A stretch of 64,000 bases of DNA from Nitrosopumilus sp. (lineage in GTDB: Archaea > Thermoproteota > Nitrososphaeria > Nitrososphaerales > Nitrosopumilaceae), in NCBI GenBank assembly GCA_965205425.1, contig CBDBGZ010000009.1, positions 352,001-416,000 of the forward strand, written 5' to 3'. Positions 1-7,112 of this stretch are shown here, piece by piece; within the stretch, counting starts at the first letter, position 1; each line of letters begins with the position of its first letter. A model generated the notes under the pieces. That model saw nothing but the letters and a program-made list of their open reading frames with translations. It ran no database searches and was not told where the DNA came from. Made by a program: the position numbers and the translations under genes.

Positions 1-1146
1 GTTGATTCAAGACATTCAGGTAGAGATTTGGTTCAAAATCATTTGTCATTCTTTGTGTTAAATCATGTTGCAATATTCGAGAAAAAATTATGGCCACAAG
101 AAATTGTAGTTAATGGTAGTGTCATGATGGACGGTGCTAAAATGTCAAAGAGTATGGGAAATATCATTCCATTACGTACTGCAATTAGAGATCATGGTGC
201 AGATCCAATTAGATTAGCTATCATATCATCAGCTGAACTGCTACAAGATGCCGATTTTAACATGGAATCAGTGTTTGGAATTCAAAACAAGCTTGCGACT
301 CTACTGGAGGAATGCTCTAGGCTCAAAAACAATACAATTTCAGAGTTGCAAGCAGAAGATAGATGGATTTTATCTAAATTACAAAACATGATTGGTACAG
401 TTACAGAATCCCTTGAAAAAATGAGACTAAGAGAAGGATTGCATGAGATTTTATTTTCATTTGAGACAGATTTAAGCTGGTACAACAAACGAGTGGAAGC
501 TAAAGAAAGAAATGATATTTCAGGAATAATGTACAAGATTAATTCTGCTCGAGTTGCAATGTTGTCTCCATTTGCACCACATATCGCTGAGGAAATGTGG
601 GAAAAATTAGGAAATACAGAACTTGTTTCAAAATCATCATGGCCTACATATTCTAAAGGGGAGATTGATGCCATTGCTATTCAATCAGAGGATTTACTAA
701 AATCAACTATAGATGATATTGTAAATATTCTAAAAGTTACAAAAATCACTCCTAAAAAAATTGTAATCTATGTCAATTCAGATGAATTAAAATCCAAAGT
801 GTATCGTAAAGTATTGAGTATCATGGTGGGCGGACAAAATAACATGGGAGTTGTAATGAAGGAACTCATTGCAGATCCTGAAACTACAGAAGCCAAAAAA
901 ATGCCAGACTATATTCAAAAAGTTATCAAGGATTTGCATTCAGAATCTGAAGAAATTAAAAATATGAAACTAGAATCTAATTCATTTAATGAAAAAGAAT
1001 TTCTCTCAAAAGAATTATCGTCCATGGGAAAGAAAGAGTTTGGAGTTGATATTACAGTTTATTCTGAAAGTGATTCAGACATTTACGATCCAAAAGGAAA
1101 GGCAAAGCATGCAAGACCGTTTAAACCAGCAATTTTGATCGAATAA
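1..1146 (+). CDS. leuS: Leucyl-tRNA synthetase, C-terminal part (5' end outside window)
   Basis: Frame open from base 1; KMSKS motif (AKMSKSMGN), GAD..R, PFAPHIAEEMW and archaeal LeuRS C-terminus (ARPFKPAILIE). Confidence 0.93.
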   Translation, partial: VDSRHSGRDLVQNHLSFFVLNHVAIFEKKLWPQEIVVNGSVMMDGAKMSKSMGNIIPLRTAIRDHGADPIRLAIISSAELLQDADFNMESVFGIQNKLATLLEECSRLKNNTISELQAEDRWILSKLQNMIGTVTESLEKMRLREGLHEILFSFETDLSWYNKRVEAKERNDISGIMYKINSARVAMLSPFAPHIAEEMWEKLGNTELVSKSSWPTYSKGEIDAIAIQSEDLLKSTIDDIVNILKVTKITPKKIVIYVNSDELKSKVYRKVLSIMVGGQNNMGVVMKELIADPETTEAKKMPDYIQKVIKDLHSESEEIKNMKLESNSFNEKEFLSKELSSMGKKEFGVDITVYSESDSDIYDPKGKAKHARPFKPAILIE

Positions 1147-1151
1147 GATTA

Positions 1152-1360
1152 TTATTCTTTCTTCAAAATATCTAGAATTTCAGAATTACTTTTAATCCAA
1201 GTTTTCAGATACGCATAGAACAGATTTTCCAAGTCATCAACTGTCCTTCTAGTCGAGGATCTGCGCGGATATCAGCGAGTTGTTCATCTAAATTGGCTAG
1301 AATTACTTCCAATCCTTCGTTAGATACCTCTAGCTTCTTTATTGCTTCATCCACACCCAT
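1152..1360 (-). pseudogene. Small helical hypothetical protein with a 1-bp frameshift (pseudogene or sequencing indel)
   Basis: ATG at 1360 reads MGVDEAIKKLEVSNEGLEVILANLDEQLADIRADPRLEG; after a shift near 1245 it continues VDDLENLFYAYLKTWIKSNSEILDILKKE* (TAA 1152-1154). The span is 209 bp, one short of a whole number of codons. Confidence 0.55.
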
Positions 1361-1405
1361 GAAAATATGATGTGATGAGGAACTATAAAGAATTATTCTT
1401 TTTTT

Positions 1406-1472
1406 GGAACTGGTAAGTTAGCGGGGCATAGCTACAAATCTTATTGCTGGTAAGTGTCGAGGCTTTTAGAAA
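1406..1472 (+). repeat. Left terminal inverted repeat (67 bp)
   Basis: GGAACTGGTAAGTTAGCGGGGCATAGCTACAAATCTTATTGCTGGTAAGTGTCGAGGCTTTTAGAAA is the exact reverse complement of 4397-4463; contains CTGGTAAGT twice. Confidence 0.97.
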
Positions 1473-1526
1473 CATTAGGCATTATCACCAAATTTACTTT
1501 ATTAGTGATAATTTCAATAAATATCT

Positions 1527-2078
1527 GTGGGTAAGAAAGAATTACAGGAAAGAGATACTTGGCAAGATAAAAGTGGCCCAAAAGGTGAAGTTGCAGAGGG
1601 TAAATTTGAGATTGTATTTTTACGTGAATTTACAGGTAAGGGTTATGAAATAAGAGCAAAGCCTAAAGAGTTAAGAAAAATATACTCTGAAAAACCACCT
1701 CATGGTGTAATTATTGATTATGCCATAACTAACACTAAAACTCATAAAACATTGTATGTTGAGATCAAAAGACAAGATGGTTATGTTCCTGGGGAAACAG
1801 AACCTAATGCAGGTCGAGGAAATGCACATGAAAGATCATGTAAGTTTTTCACACCAGGATTATTGAAAATCATGCGAAAGTTTGGGAAATTAGATGGTGA
1901 TGTATTGCCTTTTTGGGTTGTATATCAAGGTCGTATTGCACGTGATACAAAACGAACCAATGAGATTACATATTGGTTTGACAAACATAAATCACATTTT
2001 TTCTTATGGAAAAATCCATCAAACACACAATCATTGGTTAATCATTTTAATAAAAATTTGAAACAACTTTTAGATTAG
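1527..2078 (+). CDS. Type II restriction endonuclease, MunI-like (PD-(D/E)xK)
   Basis: D...EIK catalytic motif (IIDYAI...VEIKRQDG) and GRGNAHERSCKFFTPGLL / LPFWVV..G.I.RD.KR segments matching my recollection of R.MunI; convergent with a methyltransferase. Confidence 0.88.
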   Translation: MGKKELQERDTWQDKSGPKGEVAEGKFEIVFLREFTGKGYEIRAKPKELRKIYSEKPPHGVIIDYAITNTKTHKTLYVEIKRQDGYVPGETEPNAGRGNAHERSCKFFTPGLLKIMRKFGKLDGDVLPFWVVYQGRIARDTKRTNEITYWFDKHKSHFFLWKNPSNTQSLVNHFNKNLKQLLD

Positions 2079-2728
2079 GAATTATTCAATACAATATCTA
2101 ATCCCCATGAAGACCAACCTCTAACTTTTTTCCTTGCAAACAATTCGATACGTTTCTGATTTGGAAACATCTTTTCTATTCCGTCCATGACTTCAATTGG
2201 TTTTTCACTGTGTCCTTTTCTTGGAGATTTAATTAATTGTTTAACATTTCTTGCTCCTCTAGGTGTTGGTATTCTTCCATGTTTGAATAATAAACATAAT
2301 TCACAGTTTGAAAGAGTGTATTTGCCAGGATTATGATTCATTTTATCCCATACAAAAGCTACAGTTCTATACTCAAAACCCCATGCCCTGCCTAATTCAA
2401 TAGCTTGTGATAGGTGAGGGTTTGTAGTCCACATGAATAATAGACAATCGTCATTTGTTATCTTGTCTATTGGAATTTCCATCATTTCATTTGTCTTCAT
2501 AGTAGGATACTTGAAACTAGCTGTGCTAATATACAGTGATTTTGATGTATCATACTGTAATTTTTTATTGTAATCCCAGGGTGGGTCTGCATAAATAATA
2601 TCAAATTTCTTGTTGGGTAGTTTTGGATATAACATATCTTTCGGTAATGTGCTGTGTTTTGTTCTTCTCTTAACATCTTCATTGTAAATTGAATAACCGC
2701 TAGGCTTCATTACTTGTTTACTCATCAT
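2075..2728 (-). CDS. MT-A70 family DNA adenine methyltransferase (M.MunI-like)
   Basis: IIYADPPW catalytic motif, LLFMWTT, HSEKP and IELFAR...GW.SWG signature of the MT-A70 family; adjacent to the endonuclease. Confidence 0.9.
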   Translation of the reverse strand: MMSKQVMKPSGYSIYNEDVKRRTKHSTLPKDMLYPKLPNKKFDIIYADPPWDYNKKLQYDTSKSLYISTASFKYPTMKTNEMMEIPIDKITNDDCLLFMWTTNPHLSQAIELGRAWGFEYRTVAFVWDKMNHNPGKYTLSNCELCLLFKHGRIPTPRGARNVKQLIKSPRKGHSEKPIEVMDGIEKMFPNQKRIELFARKKVRGWSSWGLDIVLNNS

Positions 2729-2940
2729 TCATTACCTTTTTTTCTTGCATTTTTCTTAGAACTCATACTTTTTTGTTTCATCGGAGTAATTATAATTTTC
2801 ATTTCGTTATCGATCACTTCCAAGTTCCATTCCATTTGATCTTTCACTGATAAGCCAAACTGTCTAACGATACTGGCAGGAATTGTAACTCGTAATGAAT
2901 TTGATTTATTTGCCAAAACTAAATTTGTTGTCTCAACCAT
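2725..2940 (-). CDS. AbrB/MazE/SpoVT-family DNA-binding protein
   Basis: SLRVTIPASIVRQFGL..KDQMEW swapped-hairpin motif; stop overlaps methyltransferase start; divergent from transposase. Confidence 0.8.
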   Translation of the reverse strand: MVETTNLVLANKSNSLRVTIPASIVRQFGLSVKDQMEWNLEVIDNEMKIIITPMKQKSMSSKKNARKKGNE

Positions 2941-3013
2941 AACCTATTTCATAACCTGTCATAATAATAACCTATCTCTTGACCTAATGTATAAATAACC
3001 TAAATGATAACCT
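2939..3013. promoter_or_regulatory. Divergent promoter with phased ATAACCT repeats (putative operator)
   Basis: ATAACCT at 2939, 2951, 2967, 2995, 3007 and TTGACCT at 2979; spacings 12,16,12,16,12. Confidence 0.7.
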
Positions 3014-4143
3014 ATTCTATGAATCAAAGAGAAATTAGAGGAAAACAAATAGCAGAAAAACAAAATCAAATTATCAAAATAGATGAAACTCATTACAAAG
3101 TAAATTCTCAAAGTAGAAACAAACAACATGACGTTATCTCTTTAGAATCTGGTTGGAGTTGTAGTTGTGAGGATAGATTTTTCAGGAAAACTTGTTGTAA
3201 GCACATTCATGCAGTAGAAATTTCATTAAATATTCATCAAAAGGTAAAAGATGATGTTATAATTTCAGAAGTGGAAATTGATTGTTGTAAATACTGTAAA
3301 TCACAAAATATTGTAAAACGTGGCATACGAAAAAACAAGAGTGGCAATATCCAAGTGTTTAGTTGTAAGAACTGCACACGTAAGTTCTCAATTAACTTAG
3401 GCTTTGAGGGAATGAGAGCAACACCTGATCAAATCACAATGGCAATGAATCTATACTTTAACGGTGAATCATCAAGGAAGGTAAAACAATCCTTGGTTCT
3501 TACTGGTGTTAAAATATCTCATGTTACCATTCAAAACTGGATAAAGAAATACGTCTCACTAATGGAAAAATACCTTTACAAGATAACTCCACAAGTAGGT
3601 GAGCAATGGAGAACAGACGAATTATATCTAAAAATCAAGGGTGATAAAAAATACCTCTTTGCAATGCTAGATTCAGAGACTAGATTTTGGCTGTCTCAAA
3701 TGGTATCAGAACATAAGGGAAATGATGATGTATCTCCAATGTTTGCAGATGCCAAAAAGAAAGCAAAGAAAGTTCCAACTACACTAATTTCTGATGGAGC
3801 TGCAAACTTTCATCATGCTTGGAAAGAACAATACAAAGCCAAAAACTTTCTACATAAAAATACAGAACATCACAGGCACATACACCTATCAGGCGATATG
3901 AACAACAACCAGATGGAATCCTTTAACTCAAACACTCTAAGAGCAAGAGAGAAGGTCGTTAGAGGAATCAAAAAAGATGATTCCTCGATAATCAAGGGTA
4001 TGCAAATTCATCATAATTTCATAAGACCACATCAAGGGTTGAATGGAGATACACCAGCAGACAGATCAGGCATTATTATACAAGGAGATAATAAATGGAA
4101 AACCATAATTCAAAATGCTAGTAACGCCACGAGAGGGATTTGA
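3004..4143 (+). CDS. IS6-family DDE transposase with N-terminal SWIM and Zn-ribbon domains (likely start ATG 3019)
   Basis: SWIM CSC...CKH; CxxC...CxxC; HTH (ISHVTIQNWI); WRTDELY, ISDG, NNQMESFN catalytic triad; HNFIRPH C-terminus. Confidence 0.88.
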   Translation: MITYSMNQREIRGKQIAEKQNQIIKIDETHYKVNSQSRNKQHDVISLESGWSCSCEDRFFRKTCCKHIHAVEISLNIHQKVKDDVIISEVEIDCCKYCKSQNIVKRGIRKNKSGNIQVFSCKNCTRKFSINLGFEGMRATPDQITMAMNLYFNGESSRKVKQSLVLTGVKISHVTIQNWIKKYVSLMEKYLYKITPQVGEQWRTDELYLKIKGDKKYLFAMLDSETRFWLSQMVSEHKGNDDVSPMFADAKKKAKKVPTTLISDGAANFHHAWKEQYKAKNFLHKNTEHHRHIHLSGDMNNNQMESFNSNTLRAREKVVRGIKKDDSSIIKGMQIHHNFIRPHQGLNGDTPADRSGIIIQGDNKWKTIIQNASNATRGI

Positions 4144-4209
4144 ACCCACGTACCCGCAGGGCAGAAGTTTAGGAAACTCCCTGAATTGACCAGACTATCA
4201 GATCGTGAC
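4125..4209 (-). tRNA. Atypical type II (long variable arm) tRNA or tRNA-like gene, anticodon CCT
   Basis: Acceptor GTCACGA/TCGTGGC with G73; D-loop AGTCTGGTCAA; anticodon arm GGAGT-TTCCTAA-ACTTC; variable stem TGCCC-TGC-GGGTA; T arm GTGGG-TTCAAAT-CCCTC with one mismatch. Confidence 0.75.
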
Positions 4210-4396
4210 ATTAGTTAAAATTTTGAAAAGAATAAAAATCCACCTTATCGCCCTGCGGGAGTGATAAGGCTTCATCTTTAGTCTTAATTGTGATTGCAAA
4301 TCACAGGCAAAGACAGAAACCACAAGGCTTGTAATTATAATACTTTAAACATCTAAATAAATAATTTTGGATCTTAGCATCAGTAGGCATGATTAA

Positions 4397-4463
4397 TTTC
4401 TAAAAGCCTCGACACTTACCAGCAATAAGATTTGTAGCTATGCCCCGCTAACTTACCAGTTCC
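4397..4463 (-). repeat. Right terminal inverted repeat (67 bp)
   Basis: Exact reverse complement of 1406-1472, followed by CTTTTTTT. Confidence 0.97.
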
Positions 4464-4490
4464 CTTTTTTTAATGTTACAGTTTTTGAGG

Positions 4491-5093
4491 CTAGAAATGA
4501 TTCTCAAAGAATACTTCATCCAAAGATAACTGACCACCACGTTCAGCAGCATCTGCAGATCTCTTTCCAACTACAACCATCATTACAATCATGTGGTCTT
4601 TTGGCAGATTAATTATATCAGCTAGTTCATCATATTCAAAACCAACCATAGGACAAGAATCAAGACCCATCTGACTAGCTGTTAACATGATTGTTTGAGC
4701 TGCAAATCCACAAGAGCGCATTGCCTCATCTCGTCTATTCTCAGGGCTGTTTTCATATTTTCGGGCAAGAGAGTTTTTCACTAGTTCTTGTTTTTCAGGA
4801 GTATTATTTCTCCAGTATCGTAATGGTTCTTCTTTCCATGCATTAAGATTTCCACATAGTACTACAACTAGAGAGCCGTCTTTTGGTTGGGCTTGATCAC
4901 GGGCGGCTTTGGATATTTTATCTTTTACATCTTGATCAGTAACATAGACAAATCTCCAATTTTGTTGATTATAGCTAGTTGGAGATAGTATGGTTAACTC
5001 TTTTAGTAATTTAATATCTTCAGGTGGCATTTTGTATGATGAATCAAATTTCTTTATTGCACGTCTAGTTTTGATAGCATCAAAGGTATCCAT
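4491..5093 (-). CDS. Nitroreductase family protein
   Basis: RRAIKKF, SPTSYNQQNWRF, GLDSCPMVGF motifs. Confidence 0.9.
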   Translation of the reverse strand: MDTFDAIKTRRAIKKFDSSYKMPPEDIKLLKELTILSPTSYNQQNWRFVYVTDQDVKDKISKAARDQAQPKDGSLVVVLCGNLNAWKEEPLRYWRNNTPEKQELVKNSLARKYENSPENRRDEAMRSCGFAAQTIMLTASQMGLDSCPMVGFEYDELADIINLPKDHMIVMMVVVGKRSADAAERGGQLSLDEVFFENHF

Positions 5094-5127
5094 GAAATAA
5101 CAAAAAAATCCCCAAATTTAATTGAAT

Positions 5128-5271
5128 GAAAAGGTAACTGAGCTTAAGATCAGCACTAAGAGTGCTGATGACAGCTCACCACTTAAGATCAGTAACTGAA
5201 AAGTTATCTGATGACAGCAATTTATCTTAAGGTCTGAAACGATTGTACTCAGACGAAAGACTCACCTTTTC
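5128..5271. ncRNA. Candidate structured ncRNA with three repeated hairpins
   Basis: Closing stem GAAAAGGT/ACCTTTTC encloses three hairpins of form CT-TAAG-stem-loop-stem-GA(C/A)-AG; the third has compensatory base changes. Confidence 0.6.
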
Positions 5272-5397
5272 TGAATTAGTTATGTGATTTTCTTATTTAA
5301 CGGGTACTACTTTTTCCTACTAATGGAAATCAACACTAGCCACTAGTGTAGTTTCCAGATAGTGTATTTATTAGGCCAAAAGGGATCGCAGAATATC

Positions 5398-6411
5398 TTG
5401 AAGATTGCAGTAATGGGAATGGGAGTAGCAGGATCATATCTTATGGCCAGACTAAAAAACTCTGAGCACGAAGTTACTGGATATGAGAGAATGAAGGAAG
5501 AAAATCATGATTCTATTTGTGCATGGGGGACAATCAAACCAATTCTAACAGATTTTTGTAAAAAGACTGGAAGAGATTTTGATGATTTTCTAATTCACGA
5601 CGGTAAGGAAATGCATGTGAAAATGAATGACGATGTGAAATTTGATATCGGACTCAAAGGATTATGCACATATGACAAACTAGCACTAATCAAGGATTTC
5701 ATTAAAGATTCTAAAATTATTTACGGCAATCCACCATCAATAGAGGAATTAGAAAAAGAGTACGACATGATAGTTGATTGTACTGGATTTCACAGAGTTT
5801 ATCTCCCAAAATTAGAAGAAGATTTCTTTTTGCCAACATACGAGTACAAAGTAGAATATGAAGACAAGGTTCCATATGATGACTTTTACATTGAACCATT
5901 TCCTGGCATGTCAGGCTATTTCTGGTATTTCCCATTAGGTGAGAAATGGGCACATATCGGAGCGGGTGATTACAATAAACAACACATCAAGGCAACTGAT
6001 GATTTTCTAAAAAAACATGGAGGTAAAATCCTGAAAACTAAAGGTAGACCAATTAGATTAGCAACACCTGATAGATGCAAACCATACTATTCAGGAAAAG
6101 TAGTAGGTGTTGGAGAATCAATTGGAACAGTATACGCATTGTTAGGTGAAGGAATCATTCCATCAATGCAATGTGTAGAGATTTTCTTAGAAAACATGAA
6201 TGATTTCAAAGCATATGAGAAAGCAGTAGAGAAACACTACAAGGTTTATGCTAAAGTGTTTAATTTTGTTCGAGCAAAAATCCACAAAGATTTCAGCTTC
6301 TTCAAAGCATTGCCAGATTTCATTGCAATATTTCTTTACATGAAAAAACATGAAGACAGATTTGGAATGAATATCAAGATTGCAGATTTGATGAAAGTTG
6401 CAAAAGCTTAA
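5398..6411 (+). CDS. FAD-dependent oxidoreductase, geranylgeranyl reductase-like
   Basis: GMGVAG Rossmann motif, GYFWYFP, VGESIG...GEGI; TTG start inferred. Confidence 0.8.
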   Translation: MKIAVMGMGVAGSYLMARLKNSEHEVTGYERMKEENHDSICAWGTIKPILTDFCKKTGRDFDDFLIHDGKEMHVKMNDDVKFDIGLKGLCTYDKLALIKDFIKDSKIIYGNPPSIEELEKEYDMIVDCTGFHRVYLPKLEEDFFLPTYEYKVEYEDKVPYDDFYIEPFPGMSGYFWYFPLGEKWAHIGAGDYNKQHIKATDDFLKKHGGKILKTKGRPIRLATPDRCKPYYSGKVVGVGESIGTVYALLGEGIIPSMQCVEIFLENMNDFKAYEKAVEKHYKVYAKVFNFVRAKIHKDFSFFKALPDFIAIFLYMKKHEDRFGMNIKIADLMKVAKA

Positions 6412-7112
6412 CTAAAACTTACAGAACCAAAACCTTCACGATTAGTTCTATTTGATGCCATGTTATAATCATAAATGGTAGTAGAATATGCTTTGAGTTC
6501 ATCTTTCATTTGGTCCAAGTTATCTGCAAGGTAAAATCCAGGACAATCACCCGTAAACTGATAGGTTGCATGTACTCTAGCCTTGCCTTTTTCATTTTCA
6601 AGCCAACTTGCAAATGGATAGAGATAGCAGACACCAGGTCTGTCAGGATGCATACTACAGGCTCCCGTATCATCTAAAAATCTACAAGAGATATGGGTTC
6701 CATCATCTGCTTCAGTTTCATCAGTTTTTCTTTTTAGATTAATTGTAGTCATTGTAGTCATTTGTCCTGATGGTCCGGGTTCCTGATATGTAACAGTTAG
6801 AGTTTCATTTTTAATAAAATCTGAAGGTTTTTTGTATTTCAAACCCTTTCCTATTGTAATCAAATCATCAGATGTCAATGGCAATCTACCTTGTCTATCG
6901 CAACAGTTGTGACAGTCAGGCCAAAAGCATTTCCACAGAATATATTTTTTTTCAGAATTCAAATAAGGAACATGAAATACTACATCCTTTACTTTAATTG
7001 GATAATCAGAAACATCAGTAACTTTTCCTAGCATAAATTTTCTTAAAATTGGATCAACGTCCCAATCCTTTTCTAACAAATCAAGTGACTCTTCAATCTC
7101 TTTTTGAGACAA
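6408..7112 (-). CDS. YkgJ-family cysteine-cluster protein
   Basis: C...CHNCC and CRFL....CSMH..RP.VC.LYPF motifs. Confidence 0.8.
   Translation of the reverse strand: MSQKEIEESLDLLEKDWDVDPILRKFMLGKVTDVSDYPIKVKDVVFHVPYLNSEKKYILWKCFWPDCHNCCDRQGRLPLTSDDLITIGKGLKYKKPSDFIKNETLTVTYQEPGPSGQMTTMTTINLKRKTDETEADDGTHISCRFLDDTGACSMHPDRPGVCYLYPFASWLENEKGKARVHATYQFTGDCPGFYLADNLDQMKDELKAYSTTIYDYNMASNRTNREGFGSVSFS

Follow-up and report, generated by a model that had tools for sequence, protein, structure and literature searches.

A probable IS6-related unit transposon from a Nitrosopumilus genome with a MunI-like restriction-modification cassette as cargo

Members of the IS6 family are, to our knowledge, compact insertion sequences (ISs) that move resistance genes only as composites of two copies. 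In the available text of a review of the family (PMC7986276), its members are described as having ends of 15-20 bp with GG tips and an internal cTGTt motif, as producing 8-bp target duplications, and as normally moving cargo in the form of pseudo-compound transposons. The same text gives ISDsp3 as the single IS6 member with a passenger gene, and it reports zinc-finger N-terminal extensions for clades h and i of the Clostridia and nowhere else. Restriction-modification (R-M) units that have inverted repeats of ~65 bp and an 8-bp duplication, and for which a related genome offers the empty site, are known from Xanthomonas oryzae, and in the accessible portion of that work by Furuta, Abe and Kobayashi (2010) no archaeal R-M units passed the filters (PMC2853133). 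The allo-tRNAs are characterized, in the part of their description at hand, by a long variable arm, acceptor/T stems of 8/4 or 9/3, and an association with transposon-related genes (PMC5389517). A thaumarchaeal mobile-element survey lists, in its available text, IS-like transposons with one or two genes in 13 families and no cargo-carrying IS6 type (PMC6563490), and the available text of a 2026 archaeal IS survey contains neither the word "passenger" nor a discussion of IS6 cargo (PMC13343696). Described here is the segment at positions 1406-4463 of a 64,000-nucleotide stretch of DNA from Nitrosopumilus sp. (GenBank assembly GCA_965205425.1, contig CBDBGZ010000009.1, positions 352,001 to 416,000), referred to as the window. 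No description of the archaeal transposon family to which this segment belongs was found in the literature searched, a scope that leaves ISfinder entries outside.

The segment is very probably an intact IS6-related unit transposon of 3,058 bp with a MunI-like R-M cassette, an AbrB-type gene, and a tRNA-like gene as its content; movement in one piece, in the manner of IS6 elements, is predicted for it. The segment comprises a transposase gene, three further genes, and the tRNA-like gene, with the following features outside of the tRNA-like module.

1398..1405: left copy of the 8-bp target duplication CTTTTTTT, read from the sequence
1406..1472, plus strand: left terminal inverted repeat (IRL), tip GGAACTGGTAAG; repeat finder, 67 nt, 100%
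1527..2078, plus strand: type II endonuclease gene, R.MunI-like, 183 aa, GTG start; Pfam PF11407, 3.3e-49
2075..2728, minus strand: MT-A70-family DNA methyltransferase gene, 217 aa, DPPW; Pfam PF05063, 3.6e-25
2725..2940, minus strand: AbrB/SpoVT-MazE-fold regulator gene (abrB), 71 aa; Pfam PF04014, 1.9e-8
2929..3018: divergent promoter region between abrB and the transposase gene (tnp), 4-5 ATAACCT copies, predicted operators; repeat finder and sibling comparison
3004..4143, plus strand: transposase gene; SWIM-type CxCxnCxH, CxxC...CxxC zinc ribbon, helix-turn-helix (HTH), and DDE (D205, D264, E305)
4317..4396: right-end subterminal sequence, from 4325 on common to a solitary right end elsewhere in the genome
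4397..4463, minus strand: right terminal inverted repeat (IRR); repeat finder
4464..4471: right copy of the 8-bp target duplication CTTTTTTT, read from the sequence

As found with the repeat finder, the two arms of the inverted repeat (IR), 1406-1472 and 4397-4463, are 67 nt in length and 100% complementary, and CTTTTTTT lies on both sides, just as an earlier sequence-only reading of the window had claimed. The pattern of the 27-nt tip occurs twice in the 64-kb window, both times as an IR tip, with zero occurrences expected from 100 shuffles. The tips begin with GG (GGAACTGG...). All four open reading frames (ORFs) in the list for the element are open, and together with the family matches they confirm that the endonuclease, MT-A70, AbrB-like, and transposase genes are intact. 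The description of the element as recently active, which was part of the same reading, is in keeping with the perfect ends and with a GC content of 0.336 versus 0.332 for the genome; nothing shows current activity, and a search of the element's own genome revealed no second full copy. A solitary right end at G000:C7:96090-96228 (G000 being the window's own genome) is 96% identical to window positions 4325-4463, and solitary and degenerate ends of this transposon family are common in that genome.

The insertion itself is visible by comparison with related genomes. The left flank, consisting of the 3' end of leuS and a small conserved ORF, is present in 23 of 41 genomes, the window's own included, and 11 related loci were compared with positions 1-7000 of the window. 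None of these loci matches 1406-4463. In six of them (L016, L019, L021, L022, L023, and L025) the flanks adjoin without the element, such that the left flank meets a nitroreductase gene across a spacer of 35-65 bp, and in the remaining five either the sequence ends early or another downstream neighbor follows. Within the spacer, the related genomes have a single T-rich copy of the duplication. That of L019, for example, reads ...GATTCTTAATTTTTTATTATTACAGG, which is close to the ...GAATTATTCTTTTTTT of the window followed, past the element, by AATGTTACAG. Note that the empty-site genomes are of other species (70-86% nucleotide identity), and the empty site is thus a related rather than an isogenic one. 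The element is inserted between the small conserved ORF and the nitroreductase gene, which adjoin in relatives. The passengers and the transposase gene lie within one pair of ends, and the whole segment from IRL to IRR is missing from the empty sites. The unit insertion postulated by the sequence-only reading is seen at these loci, and none of the 11 presents the contrary case of R-M genes at this position without inverted repeats. The occupied junction is also present in the contigs of four public runs from three studies; no RNA data set was listed among the public runs that contain the sequence.

With respect to the neighboring small ORF, 1205-1360 on the minus strand, a TATA-like CTATAAA (minus strand TTTATAG) is positioned ~25 nt before its start, and the insertion point lies 8-15 bp upstream of this motif (window 1380-1405). 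The insertion may have displaced the upstream promoter element of the ORF.

The transposase frame is listed from position 3004, but its true start is probably the ATG at 3019, because the relatives begin with MNQR... as does the protein when read from there. Residues 201-340 match Pfam DDE_Tnp_IS240 (PF13610) with 56.3 bits against a cut-off of 27 (E 4.9e-15), and residues 134-341 match all 202 positions of the NCBIfam IS6 model, NF033587 (E 1.5e-32). The SWIM match in Pfam is weak (0.019) and lies under the Pfam cut-off. In an alignment of seven members, the SWIM-type CxCxnCxH, the CxxC...CxxC ribbon, and W..DE.Y.K with D205, D264, and E305 are invariant, as are Arg 313 and Lys 317 following Glu 305. 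Asp 205 lies in W..DELYLK, which we take to be the counterpart of the DDE/DE.Y motif of the IS6 enzymes, and the assignment of D205, D264, and E305 as the triad is our reading of the alignment. When 72,556 plasmids were searched with tblastn, all of the feature-annotated matches among those listed belonged to the IS6 family (IS1216, ISS1, IS6100, IS257, and IS26). The best match listed was an IS6 element of Clostridium perfringens, which is 33% identical over residues 115-364, zinc ribbon included.

A large archaeal family, with ends that begin GGnnCTG and with 8-bp duplications, includes this element. A survey scan conducted with one genome per species yielded at least 552 transposase relatives among the 580 candidate stretches listed. 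The hosts among the matches listed include Nitrosopumilus, Nitrosotalea, Nitrososphaera, Nitrosocosmicus, Bathyarchaeia, and metagenome-assembled genomes (MAGs) of Thermoplasmata, and the closest among them (80-86%) are from Nitrosopumilus. Seventy-nine loci were kept, and an IR pair was scored when it was at least 40 bp in length, at least 85% identical, and enclosed the transposase gene. Such a pair was present in 33 of the 79 loci; the other 46 include short contigs and cases missed by the simple search. An exact 8-bp duplication accompanies 20 of the 33 IR-bounded elements, versus 0 of 33 in a control for which the right flank was displaced by 50 bp. The tips are mostly GGnnCTG(T/G), with GGTTCTGT in most relatives, the ends extend over 47-78 bp or longer, and the elements range from 2.7 to 10 kb. 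Two pairs of elements, each pair residing in one genome, are 100% identical, namely L072/L073 over 4,027 bp and L087/L088 over 3,602 bp. In both pairs the identity ends at the IR tips, the flanks are unrelated, and target duplications are lacking. These identical duplicates are the most direct sign that the IRL-cargo-tnp-IRR unit moves as one piece.

The sequence-only reading had suggested that the content between IR pairs be tabulated. This was done for 30 distinct elements (119 ORFs), the two exact duplicates and a deletion derivative being left out. The cargo differs between elements, and a DNA methyltransferase domain is found in 16 of the 30, including methyltransferase-HNH fusions, a NotI-like enzyme, type IIG enzymes, and a type I-like M+S arrangement. 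The other 14 contain unknowns, a SocA/Panacea protein, DUF3800, proteasome-like proteins, a cyclase domain, or an inserted IS, and an AbiV-type gene is carried by an element in another family of the order. The proteasome-subunit-like cargo (PF00227, E 5e-18 to 2.5e-5) occurs in four MAGs, at L125 3734-4543, L133 8001-8738, L143 3357-4109, and L104 10263-10982. A cargo-free minimal IS was also sought among the 33 IR-bounded loci, and none was found; the only short element, L112, measures 1,169 bp and is a deletion derivative in which half of a transposase is left. Two relatives are located in the window's own genome.

G000:C9:294316-299979: 5,664 bp, perfect 74-bp ends, two methyltransferases and a 514-aa unknown
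G000:C8:16221-22102: 5,882 bp, 67-bp ends 94% alike, ResIII helicase and methyltransferase, duplication CAAATCTT

The second of these sits (G000:C8:16184-22135, the reverse complement of G000:C9:535-6494) in a degenerate copy of the window element's end type, the insertion point being at repeat positions 30-37, where CAAATCTT forms the 8-bp duplication. Transposon ends seem to be targets for siblings. The stretches G000:C9:1-7177 and G000:C8:15501-22677 are 100% identical in reverse complement and end at the contig end. They probably represent assembly redundancy, which fits the 5.2% contamination figure.

Cargo modules are exchanged between members of the family. The nearest transposases are those of G014 (92% amino acid identity, intact) and G009 (85%, with stops), and the ends of the G014 and G009 elements are 87-93% identical to those of the window element, the G014 ends being 87-89% identical. 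The cargoes are nevertheless different, as follows.

Window element: MunI-like R, MT-A70 M, and AbrB
G014 (L045 5386-8856): 82-aa ORF, R.HinP1I-like enzyme, D12 methyltransferase, and AbrB-type gene
G009a (L046 5573-8741): R.BsaWI-like enzyme and N6_N4 methyltransferase
G009b (L047 5446-10350): small ORF, EcoRI-type methyltransferase, and GmrSD_N/HNH nuclease; transposase broken by another IS

In these siblings, homology to the window element stops ~63-65 bp inside IRL and restarts 20-35 bp upstream of tnp. A search of 151 genomes of the genus with the endonuclease revealed one close homologue, in G091 (81% amino acid identity). The R and M frames of G091 are 81% identical at the nucleotide level to element positions 123-1320, the match coinciding precisely with the interval between the two start codons of R and M. 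These frames reside in an element of 2,747 bp with perfect 54-bp ends unlike those of the window element (tip GGTTCTGTGAAG), a transposase that is ~45-55% identical to the window's and is divided into two frames, and a small regulator that is unlike the window's and resembles that of G009b. Given that G091 has the same R and M genes with another regulator and another transposase, the R-M pair moves independently of abrB, and the cargo with abrB moves independently of tnp. The proposal that the cargo slot is interchangeable thus holds in both directions, with one backbone bearing other R-M systems and one R-M system on another backbone.

The G091 transposase (L178 8290-9424) is encoded by two overlapping frames of 203 and 194 aa, a split that could reflect either a frameshift mutation or programmed frameshifting. 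In the public runs X1, X3, and X4, contigs join window position 4075 to 4352 via 239 other letters instead of the 276 that include the tRNA-like module. These joins point to the presence, in those samples, of a sibling copy in which another segment separates the transposase end from IRR. The depth of the repeat bins in these three runs is several-fold above that of the cargo.

The endonuclease aligns end to end with R.MunI (PDB 1D02), residues 1-183 against 1-202, with an E value of 1.8e-50, and the D...EIK and GNAHER stretches of R.MunI are kept. The R and M genes are convergent and overlap by 4 bp. No NCBIfam family was matched in a scan of the R, M, and AbrB proteins. The pair likely cuts and methylates CAATTG. 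We infer that it would provide the host with antiviral restriction and, through post-segregational addiction, would contribute to the stability of the element.

The abrB and M genes look like one operon that diverges from tnp, since the abrB stop codon overlaps the M start codon (ATGA). A profile built from six AbrB-type genes detected a further two in siblings. Each of the eight elements has, in the gap of 64-110 bp between abrB and tnp, three to five direct repeats around ACCTA. These repeats vary between elements, and the last copy abuts the tnp start. We infer that they may be operators for the AbrB-type protein, through which both tnp and the abrB-M operon would be controlled. The possibility that AbrB is part of the R-M cassette was also considered and rejected, as the G091 element has the same R and M genes (81% nucleotide identity) with another small regulator. 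The AbrB-type gene more closely resembles a regulator that belongs to the backbone and faces the tnp promoter.

Between the transposase gene and the right end lies a module with the following features.

4122..4316, minus strand: tRNA-like module, ~195 bp, missing from the closest sibling elements
4124-4210, minus strand: tRNA-like gene, 87 nt, anticodon CCT at 4171-4173; ARAGORN tRNA-Arg(CCT)
4243-4269: leader hairpin, its loop (4250-4259) complementary to the variable arm (4154-4163)
4289-4305: palindrome in the tRNA-like module

A TATA-like T-run is likewise part of the module. In the closest siblings the transposase stop codon runs directly into IRR, and window positions 4125-4396 (272 bp) are therefore an addition. 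The sequence-only reading referred to a tRNA. A cloverleaf and the ARAGORN call are indeed present; the gene, though, is a non-canonical tRNA-like gene of class II shape on which the Rfam model is silent. It has a long variable region (~13 nt), G73, and a T:T mismatch in the T-stem. According to ARAGORN and RNAalifold, the acceptor stem is 7 bp and the T-stem 5 bp, rather than 8/4 or 9/3. Rfam RF00005 gave no match to the gene at either the gathering score or E<=10, and the gene is absent from the 60 matches obtained for the genome.

The ~195-bp module recurs, 76-77% identical, in G124 and G119, where it lies just past C-terminal fragments of transposases in the opposite orientation. A covariance model run over the 151 genus genomes gave specific matches in five genomes, for seven copies in all, with matches of ~77 bits or above being used; ordinary Ser and Leu tRNAs score 60-75 bits in all 151 genomes, and the model, R1, was rejected as an unrestricted genus-wide detector for that reason. 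The comparisons of the module rest on three to seven sequences. The anticodons of the seven copies, read partly by eye, are CCT, TCT, CCT, TCT, TCG, TAT, and CTT.

The tRNA-like gene could reasonably be explained, if with somewhat less than an even chance, as a pseudo-tRNA in decay or as part of an integration site, hitch-hiking in the element without a function of its own. The silence of Rfam and the T:T mismatch are as expected for such a relic, the host has its own canonical CCT tRNA (50 bits), and the module is missing from the closest siblings, is limited to five of the 151 genus genomes, and in two copies lies beside transposase fragments. Against decay stands the manner in which the copies vary. 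Among the three that are 76-77% identical, 5 of the 54 predicted pairs have changed on both sides, in the acceptor, D, and anticodon stems, and the cloverleaf is kept by these compensatory changes. The canonical form of the anticodon loop, with U33 and A37, persists through changes of the anticodon itself, and two distant copies are good Rfam tRNAs (59.6 and 42.9 bits). In six of the seven copies, a leader-hairpin loop ~50-60 nt upstream is complementary over 7-11 nt to the variable-arm region (shuffle p<=0.008 each), with a complementary sequence that differs from copy to copy; in the seventh copy the complementarity extends over 5 nt (p 0.11). Among the other long tRNAs of the genome, such complementarity is missing from the serine-type Phe(GAA) genes and from those for Val(CAC), Gly(ACC), and Leu (p 0.21-1.0) and is only marginal in two of four Ser genes (p 0.04), and it is therefore specific to the module.

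Seryl-tRNA synthetases read the long variable arm of a tRNA and not its anticodon. Serine charging of the module tRNAs is conceivable on this account and could occur; the discriminator base of the tRNA-like gene is a G, as in the serine tRNAs of the genome. A more specific and, in our estimation, unlikely proposal is that 4122-4316 specifies a serine-type tRNA with an arginine anticodon, which would place serine at AGG/AGA codons, would be gated by the hairpin, and would serve archaeal IS6-like transposons as a self-restrained selfish or defence payload next to their exchangeable R-M cassettes. As part of this proposal, the hairpin loop would pair with the variable arm, the very element that is read by the synthetase, and would thereby gate either production or charging. 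A decayed hitch-hiker and a regulated miscoding tRNA are both possible.

Several other tRNAs were encountered in the course of these comparisons. The CCT tRNA of the host (G000:C9:675463-675555, anticodon by eye) has a ~22-nt insertion in the D-loop region; it was missed by ARAGORN with default settings and miscalled as Ser(GGA) with a 3-nt intron under relaxed settings. Well-formed long-variable-arm tRNAs, each preceded by a hairpin, are located at L171 3867-4022 (G119), with anticodon TAT, 42.9 bits in Rfam, and a complementarity of 9 nt between hairpin loop and variable arm, and at L173 4220-4378 (G091), with anticodon CTT, 59.6 bits, and a complementarity of 8 nt. A fragment of an IS6-like transposase is located ~1.4 kb away from the L173 copy; the L171 locus yielded no transposase match. 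Three Phe(GAA) tRNAs of 89-92 nt (G000:C9:901280-901368, C9:254931-255020, and C8:120792-120883) have a long arm, G73, and good Rfam scores, and are without the leader/variable-arm complementarity.

A number of observations weigh against the description of the element given above. Its tip motif is CTGG where that of IS6 has CTGT. The duplication CTTTTTTT is a low-complexity T-run in an AT-rich spacer, which is weak alone and was counted only jointly with the comparative evidence. The genome contains one full copy and one 139-bp solitary right end, with no sign of current activity, and neither an empty-site joint nor a circle joint was present in the contigs of the four public runs, it being noted that contigs drop rare variants. 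Thirteen of the 33 IR-bounded elements, both identical-duplicate pairs included, are without a duplication, and the flank octamers of L072/L073, examined by eye, fit no simple inversion model. AbrB-type genes were detected in just eight of 38 small or tnp-adjacent ORFs tested, and six of the eight are the profile seeds. CAATTG is not avoided in the genome (observed/expected 1.11; 63rd when 64 palindromes are ordered by decreasing avoidance), a result that has no bearing on R-M activity. Finally, the NF033587 score of 113 bits is below the curated cut-off of 125, the 67-bp ends exceed the 15-20 bp given for IS6, and the passengers stand against the one passenger-bearing IS6 member known, as far as the available text of the review goes (PMC7986276).

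It is possible from these last points, albeit rather doubtful, that the element represents a separate, unnamed transposon family that has only the DDE fold and the 8-bp duplication in common with IS6, in which case the IS6 name would not apply to it and the transposition chemistry could differ (cut-and-paste versus cointegrate). Apart from the shortfall in the NF033587 score, the identity to annotated IS6 transposases among the matches listed is 26-33% over half to two thirds of the protein, and a SWIM-type domain is added at the N-terminus. The ends of the family are 47-78 bp or longer, none of the 33 IR-bounded elements lacks extra DNA, and the 20 clean duplications at single insertions are those that a simple insertion would give. 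Yet IS6 is the top family match of the transposase in every library, the next NCBIfam family, IS1, being 21 orders of magnitude weaker. The GGnnCTG(T/G) tips and the 8-bp duplications match IS6, and the IS6 review, in its available text, already includes the zinc-finger clades h and i (PMC7986276). Where the sequence-only reading spoke of a single-transposase IS6-family element, the single transposase and the IS6 affinity of every family-level top match stand; strict membership fails on end length and passenger content, and at 3,058 bp with passengers the element is also unlike a compact IS of about 0.7-1.8 kb with a transposase alone. It is referred to here as IS6-related. That it is instead the relic of a composite, in which two IS copies (or an IS and a solitary end) flanked a resident chromosomal R-M locus, the left copy was reduced by decay to the terminal repeat, and the cargo does not regularly belong to the element, is highly improbable: IS6 cargo normally moves in pseudo-compound transposons, according to the available review text (PMC7986276), and the solitary and degenerate ends common here make distant-end capture a plausible origin of some cargo, but both R-M genes and IS remains are absent from this locus in the relatives, the cargo begins 55 bp past IRL with no transposase remnant next to that repeat, the two ends are 100% identical, the architecture recurs at 33 loci, and two genomes have 100% identical IRL-cargo-tnp-IRR copies ending at the tips.

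For an IS6-related unit transposon, as favored here, the following scheme is envisaged. The transposase would bind the long ends and transpose the whole segment from IRL to IRR, probably replicatively via cointegrates as in IS26. Transposition of the cointegrate type would explain why the identical duplicates lack target duplications and single insertions have them. The AbrB-type protein is predicted to bind the four to five ATAACCT repeats in the 64-bp divergent promoter region, and its binding would determine how strongly the transposase gene and the abrB-M operon are expressed. New cargo may be acquired by recombination at the module borders, namely close to the inner edge of IRL, at the junction of M with abrB, and immediately upstream of tnp. 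The tRNA-like module would constitute a second, rarer passenger placed between the transposase stop codon and IRR.

With a single transposase, whole defence cassettes between long ends, and cassettes that are swapped between backbones, the family likely spreads defence genes among archaea. Should the breadth suggested by the survey be correct, the family would be a main route by which R-M systems spread among ammonia-oxidizing and other archaea, and a natural case of selfish cooperation between a transposon and an addictive R-M pair. The 67-bp ends and one protein might also provide a compact archaeal DNA-delivery tool. If the tRNA-like passenger is made and charged, mobile miscoding tRNAs would extend to archaea.

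A comparison with known systems places the parts of the element in context. Its cassette resembles the MunI system in the end-to-end alignment with R.MunI, in the catalytic and recognition stretches, and in the adjacent adenine-type (DPPW) methyltransferase. It differs in that one loop of the endonuclease is shortened by ~19 residues, the host is archaeal, and control, if any, would presumably be exerted by an AbrB-fold protein. The tRNA-like module has in common with the allo-tRNAs the long arm, G73, and non-Ser/Leu anticodons, which overlap at AGA/AGG Arg and AUA Ile, whereas its stems are of the ordinary 7/5 type and it occurs in archaea; the available part of the allo-tRNA description (PMC5389517) contained no leader hairpin with complementarity to the variable arm.

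With regard to mobility, the pseudo-compound transposons and translocatable units of IS26 similarly rely on an IS6-type transposase to move adjacent genes, and copies without duplications are expected for them after intramolecular or recombination steps. These units need two direct IS copies, or an IS and an adjacent DNA circle, whereas the window element has one transposase and one inverted pair of ends. ISDsp3 of Dehalococcoides, and the "tIS" of ISfinder, likewise hold passenger DNA inside their own ends with one transposase. From the available text of the review, ISDsp3 has one hypothetical passenger (PMC7986276), while in the archaeal family passengers are the rule, and are multi-gene, often R-M, and exchanged. 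The IS6 clades h and i, as presented there (PMC7986276), share with the element the DDE and HTH regions, an N-terminal CxxC zinc finger, GG tips, an 8-bp duplication, and one ORF; the 67-bp ends, the additional SWIM-type domain, the cargo, and the archaeal host are distinct to the element. The Xanthomonas oryzae units, in the accessible portion of their description (PMC2853133), match it in the R-M pair, the long inverted repeats, the 8-bp duplication, and the related empty site. Those units are bacterial and without a transposase of their own, whereas the window element is archaeal and encodes one.

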